A stretch of DNA of 64,000 bases. Origin: Thiotrichales bacterium (GTDB lineage: Bacteria; Pseudomonadota; Gammaproteobacteria; GCF-002020875). Positions 15,461 to 34,015 of the stretch are shown piece by piece (position 1 is the stretch's first letter; each line of letters begins with the position of its first letter). Under the pieces are notes generated by a model, which worked only from the letters and a program-made list of their open reading frames with translations, made no database searches and was not told the origin of the DNA. The DNA lies in the NCBI GenBank assembly GCA_018658305.1, contig JABHVM010000011.1, forward strand, positions 3,551 to 67,550, in the 5' to 3' direction. The translations under genes were made by a program, and so were the position numbers.

Positions 15461-15480
15461 CTGTTTTTATCTGAAATGAG

Positions 15481-16677: not shown

Positions 16678-16838
16678 ATTTGTCTGTATTTAATTTGTTT
16701 GTTTTGTCTGTCTGTATCTATTTTTTCTGTATTACTTTTTCTGTTTTCTAAGCGTAAAGTTTTCAGTCATCAGGTGGCAGTTAGAGCATTCGTAGATTTA
16801 ACTTTGAACTGCCACTTGATAACTTTTAACTTCTTCTA

Positions 16839-17567
16839 TTAATCGTAATCTGGATTAATCCATCCTACAGGAGCCACATCAGATTTAGGAACTGGAATAC
16901 GAGATACGAAATCAATAACTGCTTTCATATCATCATCATTGAATCCAGCAATCTGTTTTACCATATCTGGATTTGCATTACGGCGTTTGCCATCGCGAAT
17001 CCACTCAAATTGACGCAACATATATGCATAGTGCTGTCCCTGAATTTTTGGATAGAACTTCTCTTGGTCACCTTCACCATTCTCCATATGACACTGAACA
17101 CAGTTATCTTTATAGAGCTTTTGTCCAAGTGCTAAATTGTTACCTTCACCTTTTCCGTTGTTAGGATTCATAGGTAATTTTGCGATATAGTCAGTAACAT
17201 CAGCAATTGCTTGCTCATCACCAATTGACTCAGGTAGCGCAAAAGGGTACATGGTTGGGTTATCACGGTTAAGAGCACGAATATCAGCAAGCTGTTTTAT
17301 CAACACATTTTTATGTTGTCCAGCAAGTTGTGGAAAAGTTCCATTGTCCATTCCCCAGCCCTCAAGCAGATGGCAAGCTGAACAAACTTCGTAGACTTCA
17401 ATCCCATTTTCACGATTAGGAGCTAGTTTCATAGCTACGCTCTGCTCGCCTTCCCCTGTATTCCAATCTTTTACATCTTTAACTTGACCGCCAGCTATGG
17501 TTGTTGCACTAAAGCTGACTCCAATAAAGGTCAGTACAGTGGCAATGGTGGTTAATTTCTTCATCAA
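16839..17567 (-). CDS. periplasmic diheme cytochrome c (NosC-type electron donor)
   Basis: Signal peptide plus CSACH and CVQCH motifs. Confidence 0.7.
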   Translation of the reverse strand: MMKKLTTIATVLTFIGVSFSATTIAGGQVKDVKDWNTGEGEQSVAMKLAPNRENGIEVYEVCSACHLLEGWGMDNGTFPQLAGQHKNVLIKQLADIRALNRDNPTMYPFALPESIGDEQAIADVTDYIAKLPMNPNNGKGEGNNLALGQKLYKDNCVQCHMENGEGDQEKFYPKIQGQHYAYMLRQFEWIRDGKRRNANPDMVKQIAGFNDDDMKAVIDFVSRIPVPKSDVAPVGWINPDYD

Positions 17568-17641
17568 TTTCTCCAGTTTTTTAATGTTGGTACCGATTAC
17601 AGTACTATTTAAACATATTAGTTAAGATTAGCATAGATTAT

Positions 17642-17962
17642 CTATTTTAGAGTTGAGAGCCATTCAGCAATTTCAGCCATCTCTGCATCATTTACTAGCC
17701 CCATAACACCTTGCATTGCAGCTGTCTGTCCATTGTTACGCGCTCCAGACTTAATATCTTTCATCTGGTTTAGAGCATAATCTTTGTTCTGCCCTGCAAG
17801 TATTGGGTAGATGGGGATAATAGGTGTTTTCGCATCTTTACCGTGACAAGACCAGCAAGTTTTAGCTTTATATAGAGCTTCGCCATCAGCCATTGCCGTT
17901 GTCGCTATAGATGAGAGTAGGGTCACTGCAGATGCAAGAACTACTTGTTTTGTAATATTCAT
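17642..17962 (-). CDS. monoheme class-I cytochrome c (c552/c553-like)
   Basis: 106 aa, signal peptide, CWSCH, distal Met. Confidence 0.7.
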   Translation of the reverse strand: MNITKQVVLASAVTLLSSIATTAMADGEALYKAKTCWSCHGKDAKTPIIPIYPILAGQNKDYALNQMKDIKSGARNNGQTAAMQGVMGLVNDAEMAEIAEWLSTLK

Positions 17963-18039
17963 AAATTGTATTCCTAATGTTATAAAAAATGTAAGGTTAT
18001 TAAAGAGAATAAGTCATTCATTATATTCCCTAGCTTTAA

Positions 18040-18072
18040 AAAGGGGAAGAGTAAATTCTCTTCCCCCCTTCA
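18040..18072 (-). terminator. intrinsic terminator-like hairpin 25 nt after the nosZ stop
   Basis: On the minus strand, GGGGAAGAG-AATTTA-CTCTTCCCC is followed by TTTTT. Confidence 0.6.
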
Positions 18073-18095
18073 AATCGTAAATTAGCTAATTAAAA

Positions 18096-20390
18096 CTATT
18101 TTACAACTACAGCGCCATGCTCTTCCAGATAGGTTTTAGCACGCAGACCGATGTCAGCCGCTTTAACCTGATACTGCCACCACTGTCCAGCTTGTAGTGT
18201 AGCATTCTGGTAGTCACCACTCTTAGCAGATGCTTCAGAGTCTTTCTGCCACTTAGATGCAAAGCCTAACTGAGCCACAGCGTCATCAACTAGCTCTTTT
18301 ACAGGTGCGAAATCAGTATAGTTTCTCTCTGTAATGAACTTAACAACACTATCGATCACATCTTGAGTTGCATGGTTAGTTCCAACCTGCTTATCGTAAT
18401 CGGTTTTAGAGTAAGTTGTACCATCTACAATCTTACCTTCAACGTCTTTATAGCCTTTAGGTTTAACTAAGAGGTATCCTTCCATCTCCAAATGGAGTGC
18501 TGAACAGAACTCTGTACAGTAGTATGGGAACACACCTTCTATATCCGCAATAAAGGTAGCAGATGCTGTTTTACCTGGCTCGATAGAGAGGTTGACATTG
18601 GTACCATTAATAGCAAACCCATGAGTCTCATCTTCAGCTCGCTCTAGATTAGTAAGATGTACAATAACTTTATCACCAACTTCAGCTTCAATAGTCTCAG
18701 GAGTGATGTGCGAACGGATTACCGTACCAAACACCTCTACTGTACAGTTGTCACCATCACAAGTACGCACAGTCTTCTCGCGGCCAGCACGAGCTTTAAA
18801 CTTAGAGCGCGTATCTGTACGGCTGTTCCAACCAGATTTATAGCGAATAGCTGGCTTCAGTTTGTCAGCTTTGATTGCTACTACATAGTGCGGTTCGCCT
18901 AGTGGTAGTGGCATATCATATAGAAGCTCCATCTTATCACCGCTAATATCGATCAGCTGATGGTTCTGCGGATGCAGTGGACCTACAGGGTTGAAGCGGT
19001 CAATAGCTAGCTTATTAAGAGAGATTAAGTACTTTCCATCAGGAGATGCAGAGTCACCTTCCATCGCAACTAAGTGACCAATATTGTAGTGGATAGATAA
19101 TTTATCCAGTACTTTACCAGTACAGTAGTTCCATTTAGTAACTTGTGAATCAACATAGATTGAAGTAAAGACGGTACAAGGTTTTGAATCATACTGTGTA
19201 TGAAGTGGACCTAAACCAACTGCTACCTGTTTATGTAGCGCATCTTTTAGCGATACGATCGGGATACCATATGGGTCATGTGCTTCATATTTCTCTGCAT
19301 CGTGTGCAGTCATCATTTTATCGAAGCTGTAAACATAAGCGTGGCTATCGAGCTTACCAGAGACAATCATATATTTGCCGTCTGGAGAGACATCAATACC
19401 ATGAGGACTTTTTGGCTCAGGAATAAGGAACATAGCCTTGTTTTCAACCATAGTATCCATGGATAGTACATCCATTCCATTTACAGGTTTACCTTTACCA
19501 GCTTTGAATAGTTCCGCAGCTTTTTTCCAGTTTACAACATGTAGGAAGTCAGTATCTTTCTGAGAACAACCCGCCTCATATGGAGGACGACCTTTTTCTA
19601 TACCACCAACATAACGCTCAGAACAGAATGAGTTAGTGAAAGACCAGCCATCACTTACAAACTTACCAGCATCAGATAGATCTTGACTGTATGGAGGCAT
19701 CTCAACTGTAAATGATTGAGATGGATCGATGCGACCTTTCTCTTTATCAAAACTCCAGTAAGTAACACCACCACGATAGCGATCATTGAACTGCTCTAGA
19801 GGAACAAACTCATTCTCATATGGGGCAGGGTACTGAGCGGCCTCAAGAATATAGTCAGTATTTGGAGTTACAAAAGCACCACCGTGCTCATTGTTAAAGT
19901 GAGGATTAACTACAATTTGCTTAGTCTCGAAATCATGGAGATCAATTACTGCTATACGAGGGTTAGCTTTATCATTGATGAATAGAAATTTTCCGTTATA
20001 TTCACCATTAGTCTCAGAGAATGCAGGATGGTGAGTGTCACCAAATTTAATCTCTTTACCGTTAATGTTGCCCTGAGCAAGTACTGCTTTAGACTCATCA
20101 TCAAAGCCATAACCTTGCCAAGGTTCTGGGGTAAATACACCAATATATTTTAGGATGCGCATAGATGGAACACCGTATACGATCACCTGTCCACTCTGAC
20201 CGCCAGAGCTGAATGCGAGATACTCATCGCGTCCACCTGTTGGGGTGTAGGTTTTTGCTGCTGCAAGCAGATCCTTTTGGGTTAGGCCACGTTTTTTCAT
20301 AACATCGTCTAGCGCGGATGACCACGCTGAGCTGCCTGCACCTACGGACACGCCTATGGCGACAGCCATGGTTAATGTCTTATTAAGCAT
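18096..20390 (-). CDS. nosZ: nitrous-oxide reductase, clade II (Sec-dependent) with a C-terminal extension of about 110 aa
   Basis: Sec-type signal with no RR motif, seven-bladed propeller region, and the CuA motif CTEFCSALHLEM. The C-terminal tail has no CXXCH. Confidence 0.9.
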   Translation of the reverse strand: MLNKTLTMAVAIGVSVGAGSSAWSSALDDVMKKRGLTQKDLLAAAKTYTPTGGRDEYLAFSSGGQSGQVIVYGVPSMRILKYIGVFTPEPWQGYGFDDESKAVLAQGNINGKEIKFGDTHHPAFSETNGEYNGKFLFINDKANPRIAVIDLHDFETKQIVVNPHFNNEHGGAFVTPNTDYILEAAQYPAPYENEFVPLEQFNDRYRGGVTYWSFDKEKGRIDPSQSFTVEMPPYSQDLSDAGKFVSDGWSFTNSFCSERYVGGIEKGRPPYEAGCSQKDTDFLHVVNWKKAAELFKAGKGKPVNGMDVLSMDTMVENKAMFLIPEPKSPHGIDVSPDGKYMIVSGKLDSHAYVYSFDKMMTAHDAEKYEAHDPYGIPIVSLKDALHKQVAVGLGPLHTQYDSKPCTVFTSIYVDSQVTKWNYCTGKVLDKLSIHYNIGHLVAMEGDSASPDGKYLISLNKLAIDRFNPVGPLHPQNHQLIDISGDKMELLYDMPLPLGEPHYVVAIKADKLKPAIRYKSGWNSRTDTRSKFKARAGREKTVRTCDGDNCTVEVFGTVIRSHITPETIEAEVGDKVIVHLTNLERAEDETHGFAINGTNVNLSIEPGKTASATFIADIEGVFPYYCTEFCSALHLEMEGYLLVKPKGYKDVEGKIVDGTTYSKTDYDKQVGTNHATQDVIDSVVKFITERNYTDFAPVKELVDDAVAQLGFASKWQKDSEASAKSGDYQNATLQAGQWWQYQVKAADIGLRAKTYLEEHGAVVVK

Positions 20391-21182: not shown

Positions 21183-21980
21183 ATGGTGAAGATGATAATT
21201 ATGACTAAGATATCAAATAAATTGAGCGCAGGACTGCTCGCATCTATGTTAGTGATGCTTGCAGGATGTTCTAGTGAGGGAGATGCTGTTGCAGAGGTTA
21301 TGGTAACTCCTGGCTTTGAGGCTAACACTGTGGTCGAAGGGGAGGGCAGAGCTGCGCAGAGTGGTGATGAAGTTACTGTTCACTATACTGGCACTCTTAC
21401 TGATGGAACTAAGTTTGATTCTAGTAGAGATAGAGATAAACCATTTAGCTTCACCCTTGGTGCAGGATCCGTTATTAAAGGCTGGGATGTTGGAGTAGTG
21501 GGGATGAAGCCTGGTGAGCAGCGCAAGCTAGTTATTCCAGCAGAAATGGGGTATGGTAGTCGTGCTATGTCAGTAATTCCAGCTAACTCCACCTTGCTCT
21601 TTGATGTGGAGTTGATATCTGCAGTTGGAATTAACAATATTAGTAGTTCTGAACTGAAAGCGATGTTGGCAGAGGGCAACTTAACTCTGGTAGATATCCG
21701 TCGTCCAGAAGAGTGGAAGAAGACCGGTATTATTGAAGGATCTAAGAAAATCACAGCCTTCACTAAAAATGGTCGCATCCATAGTGATTTCAATGATAAG
21801 TTCTTAAAGCGTCTTGAGCCAAAAGGTGAAAACGATAAAATTGTAATAATTTGTCGTACAGGAAATCGCACTAAGACCCTTGCCAGAGCCCTTGTAAAAG
21901 AGATGGGATGGCAAGATGTCTACAATGTTAAAGATGGAATAACCGACTGGATTAAGAGAGGTAATCCAGTAATTAAATAA
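21183..21980 (+). CDS. lipoprotein with FKBP-type peptidyl-prolyl isomerase and rhodanese domains
   Basis: Lipobox LAGCSS; FKBP core VTVHYTGTLTDGTKFDSS...GWDVGVVGMKPGE; rhodanese Cys loop IVIICRTGNRT. Confidence 0.72.
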   Translation: MVKMIIMTKISNKLSAGLLASMLVMLAGCSSEGDAVAEVMVTPGFEANTVVEGEGRAAQSGDEVTVHYTGTLTDGTKFDSSRDRDKPFSFTLGAGSVIKGWDVGVVGMKPGEQRKLVIPAEMGYGSRAMSVIPANSTLLFDVELISAVGINNISSSELKAMLAEGNLTLVDIRRPEEWKKTGIIEGSKKITAFTKNGRIHSDFNDKFLKRLEPKGENDKIVIICRTGNRTKTLARALVKEMGWQDVYNVKDGITDWIKRGNPVIK

Positions 21981-21994
21981 GAGTTAAATAATAG

Positions 21995-23929
21995 TTAAAT
22001 AGGTCTCCGCGCCTGTTTAGCTATTCTTCTATAACGAGGGTCAAAGGCTGCGATTATTCCTCCTAATGACATAATCAGTACTCCCAACCATATCCACTGG
22101 ATAAATGGTTTGTAATATACTCGCATAGCCCAAGCTCTACTGTTCTTAATTGGCTCGCCCATCGCTACATATAGATCACGGAACAGCCCTTCATCAATAG
22201 AAGCCTCTGTCATCGGCATTTTCTGCACGGTGTACAGGCGCTTCTCAGGATGGAGTGCAGCAACTTGGTTGTTGTCACTATCATAGACATATACTAATCC
22301 TTTTGTAGTGGTATAGTTCGGTCCTTGCTCTTCAACTAAACCATCGAGAAGGAAGGTATAACCACCTGCCTCAACCTTGCTGCCTGGCTCCATACGAACA
22401 TCTTTCTCAATACTGAATGCGGTAGTGAAACCGACCCCTATAATAAAAAATGCCAGTCCAGTGTGACCAACTAGCATAGCAAGTTGATTGCGTGAAAGTA
22501 CCTTGCGTCTCACTTTTTGAACAAAGTCTGCAAACATGGTGAATATTATCCAGACTGCAACAATCATACTTAAGGTTAGCTGAATAGAGCTCTGATTGAA
22601 GATTAGATGTGGTAGTGATCCACCAACTACTATAGCTGCTACCAAAGCTACTATCTGTTTACTAGCTACACGTTTAACTTGATCAGCTTTCCACCTAATC
22701 ACTGCACTAAGTCCTATTAGGAATGACATTGGAAGCATAATAGGGACGAACACATTATCAAAGTATGGAGGACCTACAGAGATCTTGCCCATATCTAACG
22801 AATCTAATATAAGAGGGTATAGAGTTCCTATTAACACAGTAAGAGTTGCAACAACTAAAAGTACATTATTGATTAGAAGTAGAGTCTCCCGTGAGAATGG
22901 TTTAAACTTACCGCCACTATGGATCATAGGCGCACGCCAAGCGTAGAGTGCAAGTGAGCCTCCAATTACCGCTACAAGGAAGAAGAGGATAAATATTCCA
23001 CGAGTAGGGTCAGCAGCGAATGCATGAACTGATACTAGTACGCCAGAGCGGACTAAGAATGTGCCAAGTAGACTCAGAGAGAATGCAAATATTGCTAGTA
23101 GTACAGTCCACGCCTTAAAGGCACCTCGTTTTTCAGTTACAGCAAGCGAGTGGAGTAGGGCGGTACCCATTAACCACGGCATAAATGATGCATTTTCTAC
23201 TGGATCCCAAAACCACCATCCGCCCCAGCCAAGCTCGTAGTATGCCCACCAGCTACCTAAACCAATGCCTAGCGAGAGAAATACCCACGCCATTGCTGTC
23301 CAAGGACGAGACCAGCGAGCCCAAGTTGCATCCAACTGCCCACCAATTAGGGCTGCGATAACGAATGCGAATGGTATAGCAAAACCAACATATCCCATAT
23401 AGAGAAGAGGCGGGTGAATAATAAGGCCAGGATCTTGGAGGAGTGGGTTGAGATCGCGTCCATCTAGTGCTGCAGGAATAAGGCGTTCAAATGGATTTGA
23501 AGTTAACAGTAGAAATAGTAGGAATCCAATTCCAACAAGACCAAGTATAGCAAGTGCACGCGAGGTTAGAGTGAAAGGGAGACTTTTACTGAACCAAGTA
23601 ACCGCAGCTCCCCATCCACTTAGCATAAATGCCCATAATAGTAGCGAGCCCTCATGGCCACCCCAGACTGCACTAGCCTTGTAGATCATTGGGAGGAGAG
23701 AGTTTGAGTTGGTTGCAACATAGCGTACAGAGAAATCATCAGTTACAAAGCTAACTCCAAGTAGAACTATCGCTATAGTCATAAACAGAAATTGTGCTTG
23801 GGCAGCTGGACGTGCAATTGCCATCAAATTAGAGATGCCGAGCTGTGCTCCGATAAGGGGGATAACTCCCTGCACAATAGCTATTGCGAGAGCGATCATT
23901 AACGCAAAGTTACCAATTTCAGGGATCAT
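21995..23929 (-). CDS. ccmF: cytochrome c-type biogenesis heme lyase CcmF
   Basis: 644-aa polytopic membrane protein with the WWD region [12 protein letters not shown]. Confidence 0.9.
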
Positions 23930-24390
23930 TGTGCACTCTCCTTCATCTTATTAATTCCATCTTGCATTCCCTTCTCCAACGCTTCAGCAACCTCGGGTGG
24001 CATATAGTTTTCATCGTGTTTAGCAAGAACCTCTTCTGCGACAAAAATTCCATCACTCCCAAGCTTACCGAGAGTTACAATACCTTGCTCCTCACGAAAT
24101 AGGTCAGGAAGAATGCCAGTATAGGCGACAGTGACAGTTTTATTGCCATCATTAACATCAAAGTGAACAGTTAAGCCTCCATCAGCTTTGCGTTTGACGC
24201 TCCCTTCAGAGACCATTCCTCCCAAACGGAAAGTATGTTCAAGAGGTGCTTTGCCCTCTACCACTTCAGTTGGGCTGTAGAAGAGGTTAATGTTTTCATT
24301 GAGGGCTTTCATCATAAATGTGGCAGCAATCGCAACTCCTCCAATAATTAGAAGGATTAGGAGTAGTCTCTTTTTTCTTTTTGATGTCAT
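23926..24390 (-). CDS. ccmE: heme chaperone CcmE
   Basis: N-terminal TM helix, OB fold, and the heme-binding motif [13 protein letters not shown]. Confidence 0.9.
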
Positions 24391-24535
24391 CTTTGTATCT
24401 CTATAGTGTAAGTTATGTTGTGGTTATGTTGAGTTGAGTATATTTTATTATATAAATAATGTCGTAAATTACTTTAATTGTACCCTACACAAGGTGGAAG
24501 TAAGTTCTTTACGAGCGTTTTTTTTGTATCTCTCT

Positions 24536-24568
24536 GTAACACTACAACTGCCATTTAGGCAGTTGCGG
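24536..24568. repeat. 32-bp hairpin repeat (GCAACTGCC-TAAAT-GGCAGTTG plus flank); an inverted-orientation second copy lies at 34712-34743
   Basis: Identical 32-mer CGCAACTGCCTAAATGGCAGTTGTAGTGTTAC on opposite strands at the two loci. Confidence 0.7.
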
Positions 24569-24586
24569 TCATCTAAGGATAACAGT

Positions 24587-25849
24587 TTATCTCTCCTGTT
24601 GTCGAATATGTCTTGCTATACTCTTTTTAGCTTCACGAGTAGTACGTAGAGCTCCAAGTAGATTTAGAAGAAATACGGTTAAGGCTATTAGATATGAGGC
24701 GAGCACATATTTAGAGTGGTCTCTAATGTTGAGTGCAGCGATAGAGGTGGCACGAATATACCCCATATTTTTAGTGTCACTATCTGTAACAGGAGTTCCA
24801 GTAATATGCGCCCCCCAATGGGTGCGGAGTTGCTTTGGAAGTGTTCCGGTAAAGTTTATCTGCAGCTCTTTGCGGCCACTTTTTACAGTACTATCTTGAG
24901 TGTCAGCAAGATCTGCGAGAGTTATCTTATGCTCCTTTCCAGTAGACTCAATAGTTTTAACTTCTCCACGCATCTCAATGTTATCTCCAGCAGCACTGTT
25001 AGTGATAACTTCGGCTACAGTTAAAACTGGAGTAGTAGTGGTTGAGGTTGCGTGGAAACCAATATAGCCAACAGCTGCAACTGGAATAAGCCAGTGGAGT
25101 ATGTTAGTTTTAATAGTAGGTAGATTGCGGACCCAGCTTCCTCGCGAGTCTTGCTGTAGGGTAAGTCCTCGAGCACGAATTAATAGAACTACGGCATAAA
25201 ATATAGATAGAGCAAAAAGCATCAACAGCATAGAGCTTAACATTGTCATCTCCATAGATGGTTTAGCTATCTTAGATACTGTGGCTCCTTGATGTAGAGT
25301 ATTCCACCACTCTACCGAGAAGTGAATAATTGGTATATTAACCACCCCAACTAGCGCCAATACCGCACTTGAGCGAGCTGCACTCTGCCTGTCATCCATT
25401 GCAGCACGAAGCGCCATGTAACCGAAGTAGAGAAATAGGAGAATCAATTCTGAGGTAAGGCGAGCATCCCACTGCCACCAAGTTCCCCAAGTAGGTTTCC
25501 CCCAAATTGAACCAGTAATTAGAGCAAGAAAGGTAAATGCTGCTCCAATCGGTGCGCTGGCTGCAGCTATGGTGTCAGCAAGTTTAATTCTCCAGATTAG
25601 AAAAATAGCTCCAGAAGTTGCCATGATCATATAGATCATCATAGAGTTAGATGCTGCTGGAACATGGAGAAATATAATGCGGTAGCTCTCTCCCTGTTCA
25701 GAATGGGTTGGTGCCATCGCAAATCCGACATATAGCCCTAAAACTAATAGCGCAAAAGATGTCGCTACAAGCCATGGCAGGAGTTTTCCTGACATGGAGT
25801 AGAAATGTTTTGGTGAAGAGAAGCGGTATATAAAATTTGGTAGTTTCAT
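24587..25849 (-). CDS. ccmC: heme exporter CcmC fused to an extra TM helix, a periplasmic CcmE-like OB domain and a CcmD-like C-terminal TM with basic tail
   Basis: Residues 1-232 are CcmC, with the WWD motif WGTWWQWD. Residues 270-380 align in pattern to CcmE but lack the HDENY heme-binding His. Residues 381-420 are a TM helix plus an Arg/Lys tail as in CcmD. No separate ccmD gene is present. Confidence 0.8.
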   Translation of the reverse strand: MKLPNFIYRFSSPKHFYSMSGKLLPWLVATSFALLVLGLYVGFAMAPTHSEQGESYRIIFLHVPAASNSMMIYMIMATSGAIFLIWRIKLADTIAAASAPIGAAFTFLALITGSIWGKPTWGTWWQWDARLTSELILLFLYFGYMALRAAMDDRQSAARSSAVLALVGVVNIPIIHFSVEWWNTLHQGATVSKIAKPSMEMTMLSSMLLMLFALSIFYAVVLLIRARGLTLQQDSRGSWVRNLPTIKTNILHWLIPVAAVGYIGFHATSTTTTPVLTVAEVITNSAAGDNIEMRGEVKTIESTGKEHKITLADLADTQDSTVKSGRKELQINFTGTLPKQLRTHWGAHITGTPVTDSDTKNMGYIRATSIAALNIRDHSKYVLASYLIALTVFLLNLLGALRTTREAKKSIARHIRQQER

Positions 25850-25913: not shown

Positions 25914-26597
25914 TTAACTGGTACTGATACGAATAGATGCAGCAGTAGCTATAGGTGAGAGGGATAGGGTGAACATTAATAGAGCAGATAGTATATATAT
26001 GTACCCATCAACAGCAAGTCCTGCTGCTGCTTCATTAACTGCCATTGAGCCAAAAATAAGCACAGGGATATAGAGAGGAAGCACTAGGAGTGAGAGAAGA
26101 ACCCCCCCTCTTTTAAGACCTACAGTAAGTCCCATACCGATAGCTCCCACCAGACTGAGGATAGGAGTTCCCAGCGCCAAAGTTATCACTAAAGTTTTCA
26201 TCGCTTCGCTTGGTAGATAGAGAAGTACCCCCAGTAGTGGCGCAGCAAATAGTAGTGGCAGACCAGTAATTAACCAGTGAGCAAGGATTTTTGCGAGCAC
26301 TAGAACTGAGAGAGGGTGATGGCTCATAGTTATCTGCTCTAAGGAGCCATCTTCAAAATCGGAACGGAACATTCCATCAAGTGAGAGCATGGCGGAGAGT
26401 AGAGCGGCAACCCATATTATTCCTGGCGCTATAGTCTCTAGTGTAGATGGAGTCGGTCCAACTCCTAACGGAAATAGAGAGACTACAATTATGAAAAATA
26501 GTAGAGGGTTTGCTATCTCACCACGGTGGCGGAAGGCTAAAGTAAGGTCTCGTTTAAGCACCTGAAAAAATACACTGGATAGAGAATTGTTCGCCAT
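25914..26597 (-). CDS. ccmB: heme exporter permease CcmB
   Basis: 227-aa six-TM protein with a CcmB-like N-terminus, adjacent to ccmA. Confidence 0.85.
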   Translation of the reverse strand: MANNSLSSVFFQVLKRDLTLAFRHRGEIANPLLFFIIVVSLFPLGVGPTPSTLETIAPGIIWVAALLSAMLSLDGMFRSDFEDGSLEQITMSHHPLSVLVLAKILAHWLITGLPLLFAAPLLGVLLYLPSEAMKTLVITLALGTPILSLVGAIGMGLTVGLKRGGVLLSLLVLPLYIPVLIFGSMAVNEAAAGLAVDGYIYILSALLMFTLSLSPIATAASIRISTS

Positions 26598-27254
26598 TTA
26601 GGTGTGAGCCTCAACCATTTTAGACTCCATATTTAATTCTAAATTTAGGGAGCTATAGTAGTCACTATCTACTTTAAGAGGATGGTGAGTAGTTAATATT
26701 ATTATCCCACCAGTAGCGACATGTTCTTCAAAAATTGCCTCTATCTCAGCAATTCCTTTACGATCCAATGCGGTGAATGGCTCATCTAAAATCCAGATCT
26801 TTGCTTTGGTTGCAAGTAGGCGGGCTAATGCAACGCGTCGTTTCTGCCCAGCTGAAAGGTGGCGGCAGGGTATATCTTCAAAACCTGAAAGCGAGAGGCG
26901 AGCTAGAATAGCATAGAGATCAACTCCATCTTTAGTTGGTGCGAGTGCTTGAGAAAAAAGAAGATTTTCTAATGCAGTTAGCTCTTCTTTAATTCCGTTA
27001 TGGTGTCCAAGATATGATACTGCTGCGTAATATTCAGCCCGCTCTTTTGCAATATTATCACCAAGCCATAAAATGTCTCCCTCATTTGGAAGCATTAAAC
27101 CGCATAACAGACGCAGTAGGCTAGTTTTGCCGCAGCCGTTACGCCCCTCAATCTGCAGTATGTTGCCAGGTGTGATCTCAATATTGAGATTGCTAAATAG
27201 AATGCGATCACCACGAATGCACTCTAGATTAACAGTTTTAAGTCCATTCTCCAT
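26598..27254 (-). CDS. ccmA: heme exporter ATP-binding protein CcmA
   Basis: Walker A GRNGCGKT, ABC signature LSAGQKRR, Walker B ILDEP. Confidence 0.85.
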   Translation of the reverse strand: MENGLKTVNLECIRGDRILFSNLNIEITPGNILQIEGRNGCGKTSLLRLLCGLMLPNEGDILWLGDNIAKERAEYYAAVSYLGHHNGIKEELTALENLLFSQALAPTKDGVDLYAILARLSLSGFEDIPCRHLSAGQKRRVALARLLATKAKIWILDEPFTALDRKGIAEIEAIFEEHVATGGIIILTTHHPLKVDSDYYSSLNLELNMESKMVEAHT

Positions 27255-27263
27255 AAGTAACAG

Positions 27264-27647
27264 TTAGCGCCGAAATGGGCTTCTAGTATTAGACTGTATA
27301 GTAGATAGTTGATTGGAGATGTTTGAGATCTTCTTTCCAATTGTGCTCATCTCTTCATGGACATCATTCTGGATTAACTGTACATTTCTAGTTGATTTAC
27401 CTATCTCCATCCCCATACGGTCTATCCCTTTAATTATTTTACTAAACCCTGTGTTGAGGCGCTCAACATCTTGTTGAGCATTTGCAATCGGTATAGAGAG
27501 CTTATCTATCTTTTTATTAAGTTCAATAATAGCGAGCTGGTTTTCTCTATTCTGTTGTGATATATCGTAAACCATCTTAAACAGTACTACAGCTGCAACA
27601 ACTAGAAATAGCCTTATAGGCAAGGGAGTTTTAAATTGTTCACTCAT
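27264..27647 (-). CDS. hypothetical membrane-anchored coiled-coil protein at the head of the ccm operon
   Basis: One TM helix followed by coiled-coil heptads; 4-nt overlap with the upstream Sel1 gene. Confidence 0.4.
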   Translation of the reverse strand: MSEQFKTPLPIRLFLVVAAVVLFKMVYDISQQNRENQLAIIELNKKIDKLSIPIANAQQDVERLNTGFSKIIKGIDRMGMEIGKSTRNVQLIQNDVHEEMSTIGKKISNISNQLSTIQSNTRSPFRR

Positions 27648-28138
27648 TCTGGTTCACCATCAATTCTTGCGTCATCTAACTTCTGCTGCTCTTCTGCCCG
27701 TCTATACCAAGTTTGAGCCATCTCCTTATCTTCCTCTACTCCATCACCAGAGTCATACATCATTCCTAGAGTAACCATAGATCCAGAGAGCCCCTGTTTA
27801 GCCGCCATGCTATACCACTTAACTGCAAGGTCTGAATCGACATCAGTACACTCTCCTTGGTGATACATAAACGCTAAACTGTGTTGAGCAAAAGCGTGCC
27901 CCTTCTCTGCAGCGCTCTGCATATATCTATAAGCCTTATCCGTATCCTGACTCCAACCCAGTCCATTCTGATTAATAATGGCAACTCTAAACATAGCCTC
28001 TGGATTACCTTGATCAGCTAATGGCGTGAGATGTTGCATTGCAAGAGCGAAATTTTTAGTCTCAAAAGCGGCAAGCCCATCAGCAAGCTGAAAGGATATG
28101 CTTTCAGCTATTGCGGTTTTGTCTATTGGTCTATCCAT
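27644..28138 (-). CDS. Sel1/TPR-like repeat protein
   Basis: Tandem Sel1-type repeats (e.g. AxxxYxxAAEKGHAFAQHSLAFMY). Confidence 0.6.
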   Translation of the reverse strand: MDRPIDKTAIAESISFQLADGLAAFETKNFALAMQHLTPLADQGNPEAMFRVAIINQNGLGWSQDTDKAYRYMQSAAEKGHAFAQHSLAFMYHQGECTDVDSDLAVKWYSMAAKQGLSGSMVTLGMMYDSGDGVEEDKEMAQTWYRRAEEQQKLDDARIDGEPE

Positions 28139-28206: not shown

Positions 28207-28773
28207 ATGTCACTCTGTATGAAAAAAATAGTACTCTATATGGTATTGATATTTACTGCATCAACGCTCTACGCTGATGTGAATGATAATGATGGTAAGG
28301 TGTGGTTGTGGGAAGAGCATGGTGTCTCCCTAAAATTCACTCAACTTACACCACTACAAAGCGAGGCGTTTTTTATTGGAAGAGGCTTCTCTGCAGAGAA
28401 TGCAGCAGTAGTGGGAAGCTCCTGTATGTTTCAAGGAATATTCCGTAATGATGGAGCCAAAACTGTAGAGTATAATTTAACCGAGTGGAAAGTTATTCAA
28501 CAACAAAATCTTCAGTCACAATATTCTAAGCAAATTCTCGTTCGAAATTATTGGGATAAAAAGTGGGATCTATTAGATATTCCGGACTCCCCTAAAATAG
28601 CATTTCGTTGGTCGTTAATTCCTACTCAGCAGCAGTTTGAGCCTGAAGACTATAACTGGGGAATGATAAGTTTTGGGCTACAGCCTAGTGAAAGTTTTGA
28701 TCTTGATGTAACCTTATACCTTAACGGATCTAAGCTACAAACAACAATTTTAGCAATGGAGTGTGCAAAGTGA
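28207..28773 (+). CDS. hypothetical secreted protein
   Basis: Signal peptide; sits upstream of, and overlaps, the TlpA-like gene. Confidence 0.4.
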   Translation: MSLCMKKIVLYMVLIFTASTLYADVNDNDGKVWLWEEHGVSLKFTQLTPLQSEAFFIGRGFSAENAAVVGSSCMFQGIFRNDGAKTVEYNLTEWKVIQQQNLQSQYSKQILVRNYWDKKWDLLDIPDSPKIAFRWSLIPTQQQFEPEDYNWGMISFGLQPSESFDLDVTLYLNGSKLQTTILAMECAK

Positions 28774-28823
28774 GCAAAGTTAGAAGTAGAGTTAATAGTG
28801 CTGAAGCAGATGGTTTGCTAATA

Positions 28824-29336
28824 ATGAAGGTATCGTTACTGATGCTCTCACTGTTAATTATGCAGCTCATCTCCTCCCCGCTACTTGCAAAAGAGAGTGG
28901 ACGGAGTGGCTTAACCAAAATAGACGGAGTTGCTCCAGAGTTCGAACTCCTCGACTTTGAAGGAGAGACGCATCACCTGTCTGACTATAGAGGAGAGCCA
29001 CTGATAGTGAATTTCTGGGCAACTTGGTGTCCTCCGTGCCGAGCTGAAATGCCCTCAATGCAGCGAGCCTGGGAGAAGATTAGGGAGGAGGGGATAGCTA
29101 TGCTCGCAATCAATGTTGGCGAGAATGAAGATATGATCTTCCCATTTACCGCAGAGTATCCAGTAGAGTTCCCACTGTTAATGGACCTTGATTCCAAAGT
29201 CACCCAGCAGTGGAAAGTACGCGGTCTACCCACCACAATTGTAGTCGACCCTGCTGGCAGAATGGTCTACCGTGCAGTTGGAGGTAGAGAGTGGGATAGT
29301 GATAAAATATTGGACTTGGTGAGAGCTCTGAAATGA
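28824..29336 (+). CDS. periplasmic thiol:disulfide oxidoreductase of the TlpA/ResA/CcmG family
   Basis: Signal peptide and the thioredoxin motif WATWCPPCRAEMP. The start is placed at the internal ATG (MKVSLL...), not at the ORF-track start of 28761. Confidence 0.7.
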   Translation: MKVSLLMLSLLIMQLISSPLLAKESGRSGLTKIDGVAPEFELLDFEGETHHLSDYRGEPLIVNFWATWCPPCRAEMPSMQRAWEKIREEGIAMLAINVGENEDMIFPFTAEYPVEFPLLMDLDSKVTQQWKVRGLPTTIVVDPAGRMVYRAVGGREWDSDKILDLVRALK

Positions 29337-29909: not shown

Positions 29910-30782
29910 GTGAGTAAAAAAATATTAAGTTTAAAGGGTGTATTGTCTAGTTTCATAGTTATAGCTGTAGGTTTTATTGGCTACTCGCTGCTCTCGGAAG
30001 GTGATCTCTACGCCAACCATAATAGCGTTGCAGATATGGGTAAGATATTCTCTCTTGAACAGTTGCCAGAAAAAAGAACAGTTATAGAGCACTCCTCTGG
30101 ACGGAGATATGCGGGAACAGATAGTGGGCTGTTTATCAGTGAAGATGGAGGAAAGCAGTGGAGACACTCTTTTTCAACTCCACTACCAGTTACTTTGATA
30201 ACCTCATTGAAGAGTGGAGATCTGTATACTTTTGTGGCAGGAAAAGGACTGCTTAAAATGGAGCGAGATACAAATCAATGGACATTAATAAATAATAAGT
30301 TAGGGTCTCAAGTTATACTTACTCTCTCTATTGAAGATGGAGATAATAGTAAATTAACTGCTCGTAATCAGTATGGTAAATATATTATCTCAGAAGATGG
30401 AGGCGAGAGTTGGAGGCGTGAGGATGGTTTGCCAAATATAACAACAGCAAAACTGCGGGCTGGAGAAAAGCTTTTCAATGAGAAGTGCCAGAGTTGCCAC
30501 GGTATTGCAGGGGTAGGGGAGACCTATACAGTTGAAGCTCTTACCAACACAAAATATCTGATGGCTCCTGCGCTTGATGAGTCAGCACATGCTTGGCACC
30601 ATACCGATGAAGCGTTGATTAAAACAATTTTAGAAGGATCAACGCGTCAGAGCAGAATGCCAGCCTGGGGAGAGGCGGGAGTGACGAAGCGTGATGCGGC
30701 TATACTTGTTGCTTATATCAAAAGTCTATGGGGAGAGCGAATTAAGGGGTGTCAAGGGGCGAAACATATGAGCTGTATGTAG
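29910..30782 (+). CDS. membrane-anchored protein with two BNR/Asp-box motifs and a C-terminal c-type cytochrome domain
   Basis: N-terminal TM helix; ISEDGGKQW and ISEDGGESW Asp-boxes; CQSCH heme site and the motif LDESAHAWHH, shared with the cytochrome at 36258. Confidence 0.6.
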   Translation: MSKKILSLKGVLSSFIVIAVGFIGYSLLSEGDLYANHNSVADMGKIFSLEQLPEKRTVIEHSSGRRYAGTDSGLFISEDGGKQWRHSFSTPLPVTLITSLKSGDLYTFVAGKGLLKMERDTNQWTLINNKLGSQVILTLSIEDGDNSKLTARNQYGKYIISEDGGESWRREDGLPNITTAKLRAGEKLFNEKCQSCHGIAGVGETYTVEALTNTKYLMAPALDESAHAWHHTDEALIKTILEGSTRQSRMPAWGEAGVTKRDAAILVAYIKSLWGERIKGCQGAKHMSCM

Positions 30783-30809
30783 ACACATCAAGGTGTAAAA
30801 TAGATAAGT

Positions 30810-31523
30810 ATGAGAGATGCAAAACATATATTGGTAGTAGATGATGACCCTGAGATAAGATGGTTGTTGCGCGACTATCTAGAGAAAACTGGCTATCGCC
30901 TGACTATAGCAGCAGACGGGATAGAGATGTTTGCGGCACTTGATAGAGCTCCAGTGGATCTTATCGTGCTTGATCTTATGTTACCTGGAGATGATGGGTT
31001 AATTTTATTAAGAAAACTTCGTGTTAATTCAAATGTTCCAGTGGTGATGTTGACAGCAATGGGAGAGGAGAGTGATCGCATTCTTGGTTTAGAGATGGGG
31101 GCTGATGACTATATTTCTAAACCATTCTCTCCTCGTGAGCTATTAGCGCGTATTAAAAGTGTACTTCGTCGTACGGATTCACTTCCAGAGAGTAAAATTC
31201 AAGAAGATGTAACTGAGATTGTATTTGTAGGATGGGTGTTGAATCTCAGACAGCGACATCTGATTTCACCAGATAAAGTATTAATACCGTTGAGCGGAGG
31301 AGAGTTTAGGTTGTTGCGGGTCTTCTTAGAGCATGCTGGTAGAGTTCTTAACCGAGATCAACTGTTGGAATTCAGTCAGGGACGAGAAGCACAACCATTT
31401 GATCGCAGTATTGATGTGTTGGTGGGACGACTACGCAAACGGCTGCGAGAAGATCCAAAAAACCCACAAATCATCCATACTTTAAGAGGTGAGGGGTATC
31501 GTTTTGTTCCAGATATTACCTGA
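30810..31523 (+). CDS. OmpR-family response regulator
   Basis: Receiver domain with the Asp pocket (VVDDD...LDLMLPG) plus a winged-helix output domain. Confidence 0.85.
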   Translation: MRDAKHILVVDDDPEIRWLLRDYLEKTGYRLTIAADGIEMFAALDRAPVDLIVLDLMLPGDDGLILLRKLRVNSNVPVVMLTAMGEESDRILGLEMGADDYISKPFSPRELLARIKSVLRRTDSLPESKIQEDVTEIVFVGWVLNLRQRHLISPDKVLIPLSGGEFRLLRVFLEHAGRVLNRDQLLEFSQGREAQPFDRSIDVLVGRLRKRLREDPKNPQIIHTLRGEGYRFVPDIT

Positions 31524-32907
31524 ATCACTCTATGGTCGTCTTTTAGCAATTCTACTTATTGGGTTGATGGTTCCACAACTTCTTAGTGCGTTAGTTCACC
31601 TATATGATCGAGACACTTTAATCCATCAAACCATGGGGGCAGAGAGTGCGCAGAGAATTGGCTCGATTGTAGAGTTGCTCGATCCAATGGATAGTGTAGA
31701 ACGAGATAAGATGGTAACTGCACTTAATGGATTTCCGCTTGAACTGGAGTTAAATTCACAATATAGAAAAGAGAAGGAACCTCAATATAGAGATAGTTCT
31801 GAGACTAAAAAATATGAAGGTGAGAAGGTGTATCTACTTTTTAAAGAGTACCTTCAGCAGAACCTGCCATCAGGATATGAAGTGCATATTGAGGTCGTAG
31901 AGGCGATGCTATCAGTTGAACATAATAGTATGAGCTCTCCTCAGCAGATGGTGAAATCATTTCATGTACAAGTGCGTCTTAATGATGGGGTATGGGTGAA
32001 TTTCCACTACCACATCCCCAAAAAAATATTTGCTTGGCCTCTGCGTATGTTAGTGGCTCTACTTCTCTTAATGGTATCAGTTTTAATCCTAACATGGATT
32101 GCAGTGCGCTGGGTTACCCGCCCGATCTCGCTACTCTCAGATGCAGCAGAGTCGCTTGGTCGAGATATAGACCACCCTCCTCTAGCTATTGAAGGGCCAA
32201 AAGAGGTCAAAAAAGCAGTAGTGGCATTCAATACTATGCAGCAACGCCTTAATCGTTATATTGGAGACCGTAGTCGTATTCTATCTGCAGTATCTCATGA
32301 TCTGAAAACCCCCATCACTCACCTCCGCCTCCGAAGCGATCTTATTGAGGATGAGTCTCTGCGTAGTAGTATTGAGGCAGATCTTGATTATATGGAAGAG
32401 ATGGTACTATCTACGCTCGACTTTATGCGTGGAATAGAGAACTCAGAGCCGATGCAGCAGATAGATTTAGATGCACTGCTAGAGAGTTTACAAGATGATC
32501 TAGCTCCACTACAGATAAAGTTTGATATTGAAGGGCAGAGTACGCAGCCAGTTATAGGAAGAATTTCACAACTCAAACGATGTCTCACTAATCTGTTAGA
32601 GAATGGAGTGCTACATGGATCGGGAAGAGTCTGGGTAACCATAGAAGAGAGCAAGAGTAATCTACTTCTAAGTATAAATAGCGAGGGCGAAAAGATTCCA
32701 GCTGAGGAGTTGGAACGCCTATTCGAGCCATTTTACCGTATTGAAAAATCGAGAAGCAGGTTATCAGGCGGTACAGGTCTGGGGCTAAGTATAGCCAGAG
32801 ATATAGCCAGAGCTCACGGAGGAGAACTTATTCTGTATAATAATCCAGAGGGAGGAGTAACTGCAAAGCTTGAGCTACCTTGGTATGATCTACCACTTGT
32901 CTCTTGA
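31489..32907 (+). CDS. sensor histidine kinase (periplasmic sensor, HAMP, HisKA, HATPase)
   Basis: Two TM helices around a periplasmic domain of about 150 aa; H-box SHDLKTPITHL; G-boxes GTGLGLSI. The start is a GTG that overlaps the RR gene. Confidence 0.82.
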   Translation: MRGIVLFQILPESLYGRLLAILLIGLMVPQLLSALVHLYDRDTLIHQTMGAESAQRIGSIVELLDPMDSVERDKMVTALNGFPLELELNSQYRKEKEPQYRDSSETKKYEGEKVYLLFKEYLQQNLPSGYEVHIEVVEAMLSVEHNSMSSPQQMVKSFHVQVRLNDGVWVNFHYHIPKKIFAWPLRMLVALLLLMVSVLILTWIAVRWVTRPISLLSDAAESLGRDIDHPPLAIEGPKEVKKAVVAFNTMQQRLNRYIGDRSRILSAVSHDLKTPITHLRLRSDLIEDESLRSSIEADLDYMEEMVLSTLDFMRGIENSEPMQQIDLDALLESLQDDLAPLQIKFDIEGQSTQPVIGRISQLKRCLTNLLENGVLHGSGRVWVTIEESKSNLLLSINSEGEKIPAEELERLFEPFYRIEKSRSRLSGGTGLGLSIARDIARAHGGELILYNNPEGGVTAKLELPWYDLPLVS

Positions 32908-32932
32908 AAATGTAACTTAGGAGTAGTTAAAA

Positions 32933-33553
32933 ATGTTTAATCGAAAATCACACTGGGAAGATGTCTATCAAAACAAATCTCCGCTTGAGGTCAGCTGGTA
33001 CCAAAAGGCGCCGACACTCTCTCTTGACTTGATAGAGAGTAGTGGAGTTGTGAAGAGTGCCCCTATCATTGATGTGGGAGGGGGCGCATCGCTGTTAATC
33101 GATTCACTACACCAAAAAGGTTATAGTAATCTTTCACTACTTGATATCTCTGCTGCCGCACTTGGTTGTGCTAAAGAGCGTTTTGCTGCGCTGGATGCGA
33201 AGGATGCTGTCGAATGGTACGAAGAAGATATTACTCAGTTTACTGCTTCTCATCCATACAGCCTTTGGCACGACCGAGCCGTATTTCACTTTCTAACTGA
33301 TCCAGTAGATAGAACAGCATATATGCAGAATCTGCGCAGCGCACTTAGCAGAGGTGGAGATCTAATCATCGCTGCCTTTGCTCTTGATGGGCCAACCAAA
33401 TGTAGCGACTTAGAGATTGTCCAATATGATCGAGAAAAGATGGTCGCCGCAGTCGGAGATGGATTTGAATTTATCGGTGAAAGAAGTGAAAATCATATTA
33501 CCCCCGCAGACAGAGAGCAGAAGTTTGGTTACTACCACTTCCGTTATATTTAA
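32933..33553 (+). CDS. class I SAM-dependent methyltransferase
   Basis: Motif I IDVGGGAS and the Rossmann pattern. Confidence 0.65.
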   Translation: MFNRKSHWEDVYQNKSPLEVSWYQKAPTLSLDLIESSGVVKSAPIIDVGGGASLLIDSLHQKGYSNLSLLDISAAALGCAKERFAALDAKDAVEWYEEDITQFTASHPYSLWHDRAVFHFLTDPVDRTAYMQNLRSALSRGGDLIIAAFALDGPTKCSDLEIVQYDREKMVAAVGDGFEFIGERSENHITPADREQKFGYYHFRYI

Positions 33554-33571
33554 GAGGTATAATGGACAGAT

Positions 33572-34015
33572 ATGATGCAATATAAAGAGACAGCTGTAAC
33601 ACCACAAGGATGGATATTAATTTTTATCTGTTGGTTAATTGCAATGGGCGCACTATTTGGGAGCCTCTTTTTTAGTGAGGTAATGGGGCTGAAGCCATGT
33701 GTTCTCTGTTGGTACCAGCGTATCTTTATCTATCCACTAGCCATTCTATTTCTAGTTGGTATGTTTCCATTAGATCGCTCAGTAGTGCGTTACACTTTAC
33801 CTTTAGCAACTTTTGGTTGGCTCTTCGCAGTATACCACTATCTGCTCTACTCAGGATATATTCCAGAGAGCTTGCAGCCGTGCAGTAAGGAGCTCTCCTG
33901 TGCTGAAATAAATTTAGAGTTAATGGGGTTTGTTACCATCCCAATGCTATCTATTCTATCTTATAGCGCTATTATCACTCTTCTACTCATATTTAAGAAA
34001 AGGAACACCTTATGA
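33572..34015 (+). CDS. disulfide bond formation protein B-like (DsbB/BdbC)
   Basis: Four TM helices and the Cys pairs CVLCWYQR and CSKELSC. Confidence 0.6.
   Translation: MMQYKETAVTPQGWILIFICWLIAMGALFGSLFFSEVMGLKPCVLCWYQRIFIYPLAILFLVGMFPLDRSVVRYTLPLATFGWLFAVYHYLLYSGYIPESLQPCSKELSCAEINLELMGFVTIPMLSILSYSAIITLLLIFKKRNTL

Follow-up and report, generated by a model that had tools for sequence, protein, structure and literature searches.

A CcmC fusion protein with a CcmE-derived domain and a probable CcmD module in a Thiotrichales bacterium

We analysed a 64,000-nucleotide stretch of contig JABHVM010000011.1 from a Thiotrichales bacterium (the window), which contains an operon for cytochrome c maturation (Ccm, System I). 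One open reading frame (ORF) of this operon, 420 aa long, joins in a single polypeptide CcmC, an additional transmembrane (TM) helix (TM7), a CcmE-like oligonucleotide/oligosaccharide-binding (OB) domain without the heme-binding histidine, here called E′, and a CcmD-like module, as seen from family profiles, alignment and an AlphaFold2 (AF2) model. Judged by these comparisons, every part of the fusion belongs to System I, and the ORF is a member of the CcmC family with a probable CcmD and a CcmE-derived domain. We propose that it is a single-chain CcmC–CcmD joined by a catalytically dead paralogue of CcmE, which forms a fixed cap or a surface for docking; we give this reading a probability of roughly 0.55.

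The ORF occupies positions 24587–25849 exactly, as the initial annotation had it, and we add that the coding strand is the minus strand; a translation of the plus strand is riddled with stops. Unless stated otherwise, the coordinates below are window positions of features on the minus strand. The N-terminal 18 residues, MKLPNFIYRFSSPKHFY, are kept across the aligned relatives and the 420-aa start is correct; some gene callers choose the alternative start Met19, which gives a protein of 402 aa. An identical 420-aa protein is deposited at NCBI as MBT3348269.1 (from a Thiotrichales metagenome-assembled genome, MAG) and the same sequence was found on 204 contigs. The same architecture is seen in about 36 protein clusters of 385–420 aa, which fall into four sequence groups (groups 1–4) and consist of MAG proteins of the Thiotrichales/Piscirickettsiaceae type. 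Further relatives of the C-terminal part are encoded by separate genes and are referred to as standalone forms.

Domain structure of the fusion protein

Residues 1–245 (25115..25849) form the CcmC module, for which profiles and Foldseek indicate six TM helices and a short C-terminal amphipathic helix (238–242). The module scored 247.2 bits against TIGR01191 (cutoff 186) and 140 bits against PF01578 (cutoff 29.9; E 8e-41). The AF2 model of the whole ORF, with a predicted local distance difference test (pLDDT) score of 82 and a predicted template modelling (pTM) score of 0.80, was matched by Foldseek to the E. coli CcmC structures 8ce1_C (E 3e-11, target TM-score, TMt, 0.80) and 7f02_C, with TMt values of 0.77–0.80 and 50–52% identity. 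By alignment, the WWD motif W116GKPTWGTWWQWD128 is located at 25466..25504, P-His1 is His62 (25664..25666; His60 in E. coli CcmC) and P-His2 is His186 (25292..25294; E. coli His184); the motif and both histidines are invariant across 30–36 fusions. Thr120 (25490–25492) takes the place of a near-universal Met (E. coli Met118), and the first periplasmic loop, H49-S-E-Q-G-E-S-Y-R57 (25679..25705), corresponds to the CcmE-docking loop (PMC6204919). The CcmC with a WWD motif recognised in the initial annotation is thus complete by TIGR01191, PF01578 and Foldseek alike, and to judge by these residues it retains all that is needed for holding heme at the periplasmic WWD/His62/His186 site.

A basic linker follows, and then TM7, residues 250–269 (25043..25102), which AF2 models as a helix with a pLDDT of about 95. 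Its mean Kyte–Doolittle hydropathy is moderate in the window copy (1.37) and clearly hydrophobic as a family median (1.73). Collinearity with CcmE equates TM7 with the N-terminal membrane anchor of that protein, running from the cytoplasm to the periplasm. AF2 and hydropathy agree on this extra helix, which had been postulated before, and the topology proposed with it, a periplasmic OB domain and a cytoplasmic tail, is supported.

E′ itself, a periplasmic and probably CcmE-derived OB barrel by family profiles and the AF2 model, covers residues 273–373 (24731..25033), with five strands over 291–373 and a pLDDT of 87 for the domain model. When the window copy was searched alone, no CcmE match was obtained in Pfam or NCBIfam, only a weak match to an Asn-tRNA-ligase OB domain, and BLASTP against the neighbouring CcmE yielded only 22 bits, around the LP..R..G loop. 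The window copy probably misses the Pfam CcmE model because of an 11-residue loop insertion, D316–R326 (DTQDSTVKSGR; 24872..24904), which is modelled with low pLDDT and in the alignment is present in the OB domain of this lineage only.

At the family level, profile comparison identifies the middle domain as CcmE-like. A profile of 24 middle domains had CcmE as its top PDB matches (1sr3_A, E 1.9e-6; 8ce8_E, E 2.9e-6), and PF03100 was matched individually by 20 of the 24 members, with a best E of 2.3e-11; P0020 scored 37 bits on this model, over the gathering cutoff. When the OB family was compared by hhalign with an alignment of 20 canonical CcmEs, a probability of 99.1% was obtained (E 1.8e-18, 83 columns). 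In a search of 1.8 billion proteins, by representatives, with a profile of TM7 plus OB (plus CcmD), ordinary CcmEs of 120–150 aa matched with E values of 1e-9 to 1e-6 and aligned collinearly with TM7 and the OB domain, from the membrane anchor through the last strand. Similarly, Foldseek aligned 8ce8_E across 153 columns, its TM helix included. In a fold search with the OB model, CcmE 1lm0 ranked only 6th, yet with the best target TM-score (0.70), and the model matched the OB domains of Ten1/RPA and of Lys/Asp-tRNA synthetases equally well; since the fold search is unspecific, the CcmE assignment rests on the sequence profiles. The likeness to CcmE suggested in the initial annotation is therefore a property of the family, linked to CcmE by profile and structure comparison, and is not detected with the window copy alone.

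The motif L337-P-K-Q-L-R-T-H-W-G-A347 (24809..24841) is the counterpart of CcmE LPDLFREGQG by BLASTP, alignment and profiles. In groups 1–2 this motif, in the form LP+x(L/F)RxxWGA, and a second one, AALNxRDH, show little or no variation. The initial annotation had noticed SIAALNI in place of the HDENY of CcmE, and this is confirmed with a refined register: the alignments, including hhalign, end with ..S-I-A-A on CcmE E-V-L-A, thereby placing Asn374 (24728..24730) at the heme-binding His130, and His378 at Tyr134. In none of the fusions and standalone forms examined is H or C found at the His130 position, which is always occupied by N, D or G. In addition, there is no free flexible heme-carrying tail, as only about 8 residues lie between the last OB strand and the TM helix of CcmD. 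TM7 and E′ would together correspond to an entire CcmE, anchor and barrel, minus the tail that bears heme. Having Asn in place of His130 and lacking a free tail, E′ cannot form a covalent heme adduct, and being tethered at both ends it cannot shuttle to CcmF; it is therefore a CcmE-derived domain and not a CcmE.

Rough dN/dS ratios, calculated by the NG86 method, were 0.07 for CcmC, 0.26 for the linker and TM7, about 0.30 for the barrel and 0.17 for CcmD; the dS values of 1.1–1.7 are near saturation, so these ratios are only indicative. Roughly estimated, selection on the fusion would be purifying but relaxed, with E′ maintained.

The remaining residues, 374–420 (24587..24730 with the stop codon), make up the CcmD module, consisting of TM8 (approximately 381–403) and a basic cytoplasmic tail, as seen in profiles, AF2 and hydropathy. 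AF2 gives a helix at 379–419, the hydrophobic core is at 382–400, and the tail has 7 K/R and 2 D/E residues. The positive-inside rule together with TM7 suggests an N-out/C-in orientation. The window module scored just under the cutoffs of the CcmD models (23.6 bits with PF04995, cutoff 25.6; 19.5 with TIGR03141, cutoff 25.95); with these models P0046 scored 46–51 bits, the standalone forms 44–56 and P0020 25.2–25.4. The CcmD-like terminal helix and Arg/Lys tail of the initial annotation are borne out by the helix and the basic residues of the window copy, and by aligned relatives that pass the CcmD cutoffs, and the C-terminal part of the ORF is a probable CcmD member. We found no other ccmD in the 64-kb window or in the 196-nt spacer between the fusion gene and ccmE, in agreement with the earlier observation that a separate ccmD is missing; a small ccmD hidden in this spacer or elsewhere in the window was searched for specifically, and none was found.

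Coupled changes at the CcmD contact and the docking loop of CcmC

CcmD binds CcmC only and is implicated in freeing holo-CcmE and resetting the WWD domain. CcmD Tyr17 and Met118 of the WWD domain were reported to be adjacent and to coevolve (PMC9616876), and the structures from E. coli show Tyr17 resting against the WWD loop. In the fusion, His378 (24716..24718) aligns with position 3 of the CcmD profile, which is the Tyr in the GGY motif, so that profiles and alignments put this residue at the Tyr17 position; in ungapped register it is also the equivalent of CcmE Tyr134. The residue is His in groups 1–2 and Tyr in groups 3–4. The CcmC side changes as well: position 118 is Thr in 29/29 fusions of groups 1–2 and Met in all seven fusions of groups 3–4 and in 83 of 85 plain CcmCs. 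The Tyr17/Met118 pair thus appears to have switched together to His378/Thr120, which supports the C-terminal helix packing as a true CcmD.

A second set of changes concerns the surface to which CcmE docks. The docking residues are D47, Q49, Q50 and R55 of CcmC and R73, D101, R104 and E105 of CcmE; Arg73, Asp101 and Glu105 of CcmE are together indispensable for docking, and Arg104 tunes release through CcmC Gln49 (PMC6204919). The complex of CcmC and CcmE is independent of His130 or of heme contacts on the barrel, on which nuclear magnetic resonance (NMR) revealed no heme-binding site. The CcmC residues D47-Y48-Q49 are DYQ in 83 of 85 plain CcmCs; in the fusions of groups 1–2 they are HSE (28 of 29) or HAE (1 of 29), and the equivalents of Q50 and R55 are retained in the docking loop of the fusion. 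In E′, Arg104 is kept as Arg342, Lys339 stands at Asp101 and Thr343 at Glu105, and so the set of docking residues is not preserved; in most of groups 1–2 the Asp101 position is Lys, Arg or Gln, and the Glu105 position of E′ is Thr, Leu or Ala. As far as alignments can tell, the documented CcmC–CcmE docking surface has been remodelled in groups 1–2.

The fusion gene is followed by a canonical ccmE of 154 aa (23926..24390), as the initial annotation had stated; it was recognised by PF03100 (E 3.4e-35) and NF009729 (213 bits). In 20 of 20 readable loci (17 with the fusion and three with the standalone form) the linked ccmE is canonical at R73, D101, R104, E105, H130 and Y134. This adjacent CcmE must be the actual heme carrier.

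Distribution of the fusion

The identical protein is present in 41 assembly blocks. When one genome per GTDB species was scanned, 15 loci were found, all in MAGs labelled uncultured Piscirickettsiaceae, Methylophaga sp., Thiotrichales or Gammaproteobacteria; as the scan used the single pattern [IV]AALN[IVL]RDH, which sees only groups 1–2, this taxonomic spread is a lower bound. One relative comes from Ca. Thiopontia autotrophica. In 23 of 23 loci the order ccmA–ccmB–fusion–ccmE–ccmF, without ccmD, is kept as far as each contig reaches, and a related genome (L005) has the full set ccmAB[fusion]EFGHI.

A frameshift or assembly error, or a lost stop codon, could in principle have merged separate ccmC, ccmE-like and ccmD genes. 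However, the identical 420-aa protein on 204 contigs comes from several sources, the architecture is common to all of the clusters mentioned above, and 14 of 14 diverged loci (51–92% identity, depending on the segment) hold one uninterrupted frame of 402–410 aa. We regard an artefact as having a negligible probability, and it is refuted short of a systematic error common to independent assemblies from different projects. Both the frameshift check and the survey of related genomes called for in the initial annotation thus speak for a genuine fusion. E′ is the most variable part, with 40–48% identity where CcmC has 85–92%.

In public databases these proteins have unspecific names that vary between entries ("heme ABC transporter permease", "CcsA", "CcmE"; "heme exporter protein D" for the standalone form). 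We found no description of a natural CcmC–CcmD or CcmC–CcmE-like fusion, or of a long CcmD, in the full-text literature that could be searched, most subscription journals lying outside its scope, in line with the earlier remark that the architecture had not been described.

Standalone long CcmD and the origin of the fusion

The part of the protein downstream of CcmC also exists as a separate gene of 167–189 aa, with a TM anchor, a His-less OB domain and a full CcmD with the sequence GGYGFFVW. At least seven clusters of such standalone long CcmDs were found (P0124, P0128, P0129, P0131, P0141, P0270 and P0271) in a search dominated by ordinary CcmD word matches; P0131 and P0141 have weak CcmE matches. 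Their genes fill the ccmD slot of ccmC-X-ccmE clusters, and in L024 and L027 the start overlaps the ccmC stop. It therefore seems probable that the module predates the fusion to CcmC. The CcmE-like domain, described in the initial annotation as inserted between CcmC and CcmD, is indeed present, and is better seen as the N-terminal part of a long CcmD.

In a neighbour-joining tree of the CcmC part, constructed without support values, groups 1–3 form one clade and the group-4 fusions nest among CcmCs that neighbour standalone modules. It is likely from this sequence comparison that long CcmD joined CcmC at least twice. The origin may be pictured as a ccmE duplicate fusing to ccmD to give long CcmD, which would later have been joined to CcmC by loss of the ccmC stop codon. 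Among the groups, hhalign gave 102.6 for E12–CcmE, 57.5 for E12–E4 and 68.6 for E4–CcmE, so that E12 and E4 each match CcmE better than any other E′ group; E3 matches E12 better (64.5) than CcmE (53.7). The pattern would fit either independent recruitment of E′ or fast divergence after one duplication.

We also noticed a conserved Cys-x6-7-Cys pair in the loop that precedes the last OB strand in the group-4 fusions P0046 and P0093 and in standalone P0124, P0128, P0129 and P0141, which is absent from groups 1–3 and from true CcmE. It is probably a periplasmic disulfide.

Possible role of the E′ domain

The C-terminus of CcmC is cytoplasmic and the N-terminus of CcmD is periplasmic, so a CcmC–CcmD fusion requires an odd number of extra helices. 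The TM helix of E′ would provide the additional crossing and link the two ends. The last OB strand stops five residues short of His378, from which we infer that the barrel sits at the heme site on the periplasmic side of CcmC. In that position E′ would most likely serve as a fixed cap or a surface for docking, in effect a larger periplasmic head for CcmD. It might shield or position the WWD-bound heme, helping the free CcmE to load and leave, and would in this way extend the known role of CcmD in freeing holo-CcmE and resetting the WWD domain.

Several observations weigh against such a role. E′ evolves about four times faster than CcmC and tolerates loop insertions, such as that of 11 aa seen here, and the near-saturated dS limits what can be drawn from the ratios that suggest its maintenance. 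The LPxxFR motif of CcmE is lost in group 4 and in most standalone forms, which would fit a loosely constrained spacer. In the cryo-electron microscopy (cryo-EM) structure 8CE8 the TM helix of CcmE lies on CcmB and not on CcmC, so the site of any CcmE-like domain is disputed, and we infer the position of E′ on CcmC only from its short junction to His378. Furthermore, the covarying changes (Thr120/His378 and the HSE loop) map to one clade and may reflect a single evolutionary event.

Alternatively, E′ could be a neutral relic or topological spacer, which only gives one membrane crossing and a stable fold to the single CcmC–CcmD chain, with its fixed 1:1 stoichiometry and co-insertion, and whose barrel has no interaction of its own. 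The need of any CcmC–CcmD fusion for an odd number of extra helices, the standing of E′ as the fastest-evolving part (in identity as in dN/dS), its varying OB loop lengths and the missing LPxxFR motif all agree with this. It is harder to reconcile with the presence of the OB domain in standalone long CcmD, where the problem of linking CcmC to CcmD does not exist, with the retention of a folded barrel across lineages that are only about 20% identical, with the near-invariant surface motifs of groups 1–2, and with the docking loop and WWD residue 120 of CcmC having changed in step with E′. We consider a spacer to be rather unlikely. The initial annotation had suggested a docking or decoy partner. 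As a tethered decoy or competitor, E′ would take the site of CcmE on CcmC and, by intramolecular competition, displace holo-CcmE once heme is attached, aiding or partly replacing ATP-driven release. A copy without His could still dock, given that the CcmE–CcmC contacts are independent of His130; Arg104 is invariant in groups 1–2 and its partner Gln49 is changed to Glu, and E′ is joined to CcmD, the release factor. On the other hand, the collectively essential docking residues are not kept in E′ (Asp101 to Lys/Arg/Gln, Glu105 to Thr/Leu/Ala), the real CcmE retains all of its own, and ccmA and ccmB are present in every locus, so ATP-driven release has not been replaced. A decoy therefore seems improbable to us.

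The possibility that E′ binds heme reversibly through His378 (Tyr in groups 3–4), as a non-covalent buffer or relay from the WWD domain to CcmE, appears more remote still. It draws on the ungapped alignment of CcmE H130-x3-Y134 with N374-x3-H378 (N-x3-Y in group 3) and on the crosslinking of heme by CcmD Y17C, a position at which other classes have His or Met (PMC12077264). No heme site was seen by NMR on the CcmE barrel, however, the N-x3-(H/Y) spacing is not kept in group 4 and standalone forms, and His378 is more simply understood as the equivalent of CcmD Tyr17 contacting WWD residue 120. A more far-reaching version of the docking idea, which we put forward tentatively and think doubtful, is that E′ is a permanently docked mimic of CcmE re-fitted to CcmC, whose barrel serves as an intramolecular gate or release factor for heme-loaded CcmE. 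The re-fit would comprise Lys/Arg at the Asp101 position of E′ with Arg104 kept, and, in CcmC, Gln49 to Glu and Asp47-Tyr48 to His-Ser. If this were true, the protein would be a natural, covalently trapped model of the CcmC:CcmE docking state, a new regulatory layer in System I and a cryo-EM target that decides between docking on CcmC and on CcmB.

Relation to known Ccm proteins

The six-helix fold, the WWD motif, P-His1, P-His2, Arg130 (E. coli Arg128) and the slot after ccmB are shared with E. coli CcmC (7F02/8CE1), from which the fusion differs by running 175 residues further, by Thr in place of Met118 and by HSE in place of DYQ in the docking loop. With CcmD (PF04995/TIGR03141) the C-terminal module shares the single N-out/C-in helix, the basic tail, the slot before ccmE and a heme-competent residue at the Tyr17 position that covaries with WWD residue 118, and it is the only candidate in the locus. 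CcmD is otherwise a free peptide of 40–100 aa; here it is fused, and its amphipathic N-terminus on the periplasmic side (FMKYFYMGGY in group 4 and standalone forms) has been deleted, the OB domain being joined on directly in its place.

E′ resembles CcmE (PF03100; 1SR3, 1LM0, 8CE8_E) in the N-in anchor, the five-stranded OB barrel and, in groups 1–2, the LPxx(F/L)R..G loop with Arg104; it differs in Asn at His130, the missing free tail, the replaced Asp101 and Glu105, the tethering at both ends and an identity of only about 20%. Standalone long CcmD has the same TM, His-less OB and CcmD module in the ccmD slot, but is a separate gene with the full GGYGFFVW N-terminus of CcmD and the Cys pair in the OB loop, and its identity to the window module is about 20–25%. 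Beta-rich periplasmic caps above the heme have been proposed for CcsBA and CcmF, and CcmC ordinarily has no periplasmic domain (PMC10663686). The analogy with E′ is functional only: fold and origin are unrelated, E′ being probably a recruited CcmE paralogue whose position we have deduced. Other Ccm fusions, namely E. coli CcmH, which combines CcmH and CcmI, and the engineered GST:CcmCDE, show that fusion of adjacent Ccm components is possible and that CcmC, CcmD and CcmE assemble into a stable complex.

The fusion touches on several questions of System I: the role of CcmD, the docking of CcmE (on CcmC according to genetics and covariation, on CcmB in one cryo-EM class) and the stoichiometry of CcmC and CcmD, which a natural single chain fixes at 1:1. 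A CcmE-fold domain tied between the C-terminus of CcmC and the CcmD residue that touches the WWD domain constrains where a CcmE-like barrel can sit, and the protein, which comes from the genome of a marine sulfur bacterium, could help to show the docking site of the real chaperone. As a stable target it lends itself to structure determination and to simple mutational tests. The locus also appears to document a pseudo-chaperone, a heme chaperone that, after duplication, lost the catalytic histidine and has been retained as a structural part of the machine by which it is loaded. Since the fusion and the standalone form are labelled inconsistently, surveys of ccmD presence or ccmE copy number will miscount in marine lineages of the Thiotrichales type.

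Domains with the CcmE fold but without the residues that bind heme may occur more widely than at this locus. The E′ profile also found tandem CcmE-like OB repeats without HxxxY in P0127 (491 aa, six stretches) and P0130 (6246 aa, 12 stretches), and P0132 and P0134 (about 220–230 aa, two stretches) consist of an anchor and two OB domains without HxxxY.

Operon organisation and neighbouring genes

The operon reads, in the direction of the minus strand, Sel1-repeat ORF, 127-aa ORF, ccmA, ccmB, fusion, 196-nt spacer, ccmE and ccmF. Upstream of the fusion, ccmA (26598–27254) and ccmB (25914–26597) together span 25914..27254; downstream, ccmF lies at 21995..23929, its start overlapping the ccmE stop. 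The Sel1-repeat ORF (164 aa, 27644–28138; PF08238, E 7e-27) and the 127-aa ORF (27264–27647), which is directly 5′ of ccmA, has a hydrophobic stretch at its N-terminus and matches no family significantly, are on the same strand as ccmA and connected by stop/start overlaps (27264–28138). A Sel1/tetratricopeptide repeat (TPR) ORF is also found 5′ of ccmA in the group-3 locus L007, and the Sel1 ORF may have an accessory function in the Ccm system, for instance as a TPR chaperone of apocytochromes resembling CcmI.

Genes ccmD and ccmE ordinarily abut. The spacer between the fusion and ccmE (24391–24586) is unusually long with its 196 nt and is AT-rich; in related loci it varies from 8 to 199 nt. 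Twenty nucleotides past the stop codon of the fusion it contains a stem-loop (24545–24566) with a 9-bp stem, GCAACTGCC-TAAAT-GGCAGTTGT, and without a U tract. The spacer might allow the fusion and ccmE to be expressed at different levels, or the mRNA to be processed between them. When the surroundings of the operon were scanned for promoters and terminators, the counts did not differ from those for shuffled sequence. The distance between ccmB and the fusion is 64 nt in the window and in L004 and approximately 114–205 nt in L001–L003, on contigs that are otherwise identical. In L001 a 54-nt copy of the first 18 codons of the fusion (9792–9845, compared with 9947) is located about 100 nt upstream, indicating a strain-level indel or duplication at the start of the gene.

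In the window the ccm operon ends at ccmF and is followed by a gene for an FKBP–rhodanese protein on the opposite strand (21183–21995 region); ccmG, ccmH and ccmI are absent there. Beyond the Sel1-repeat and 127-aa ORFs, some 1.5 kb upstream of ccmA and on the opposite strand, an ORF with a thioredoxin fold (AhpC-TSA/Redoxin; 28761–29336) shows 30% identity to E. coli CcmG. The neighbourhood of the operon is respiratory and rich in cytochromes (14006–20390 and 29910–34665), with nosZ (18096–20390, nos_propeller), two cytochrome c genes and NosD, as well as further cytochrome c genes, DsbA/DsbB, a methyltransferase and a two-component system.

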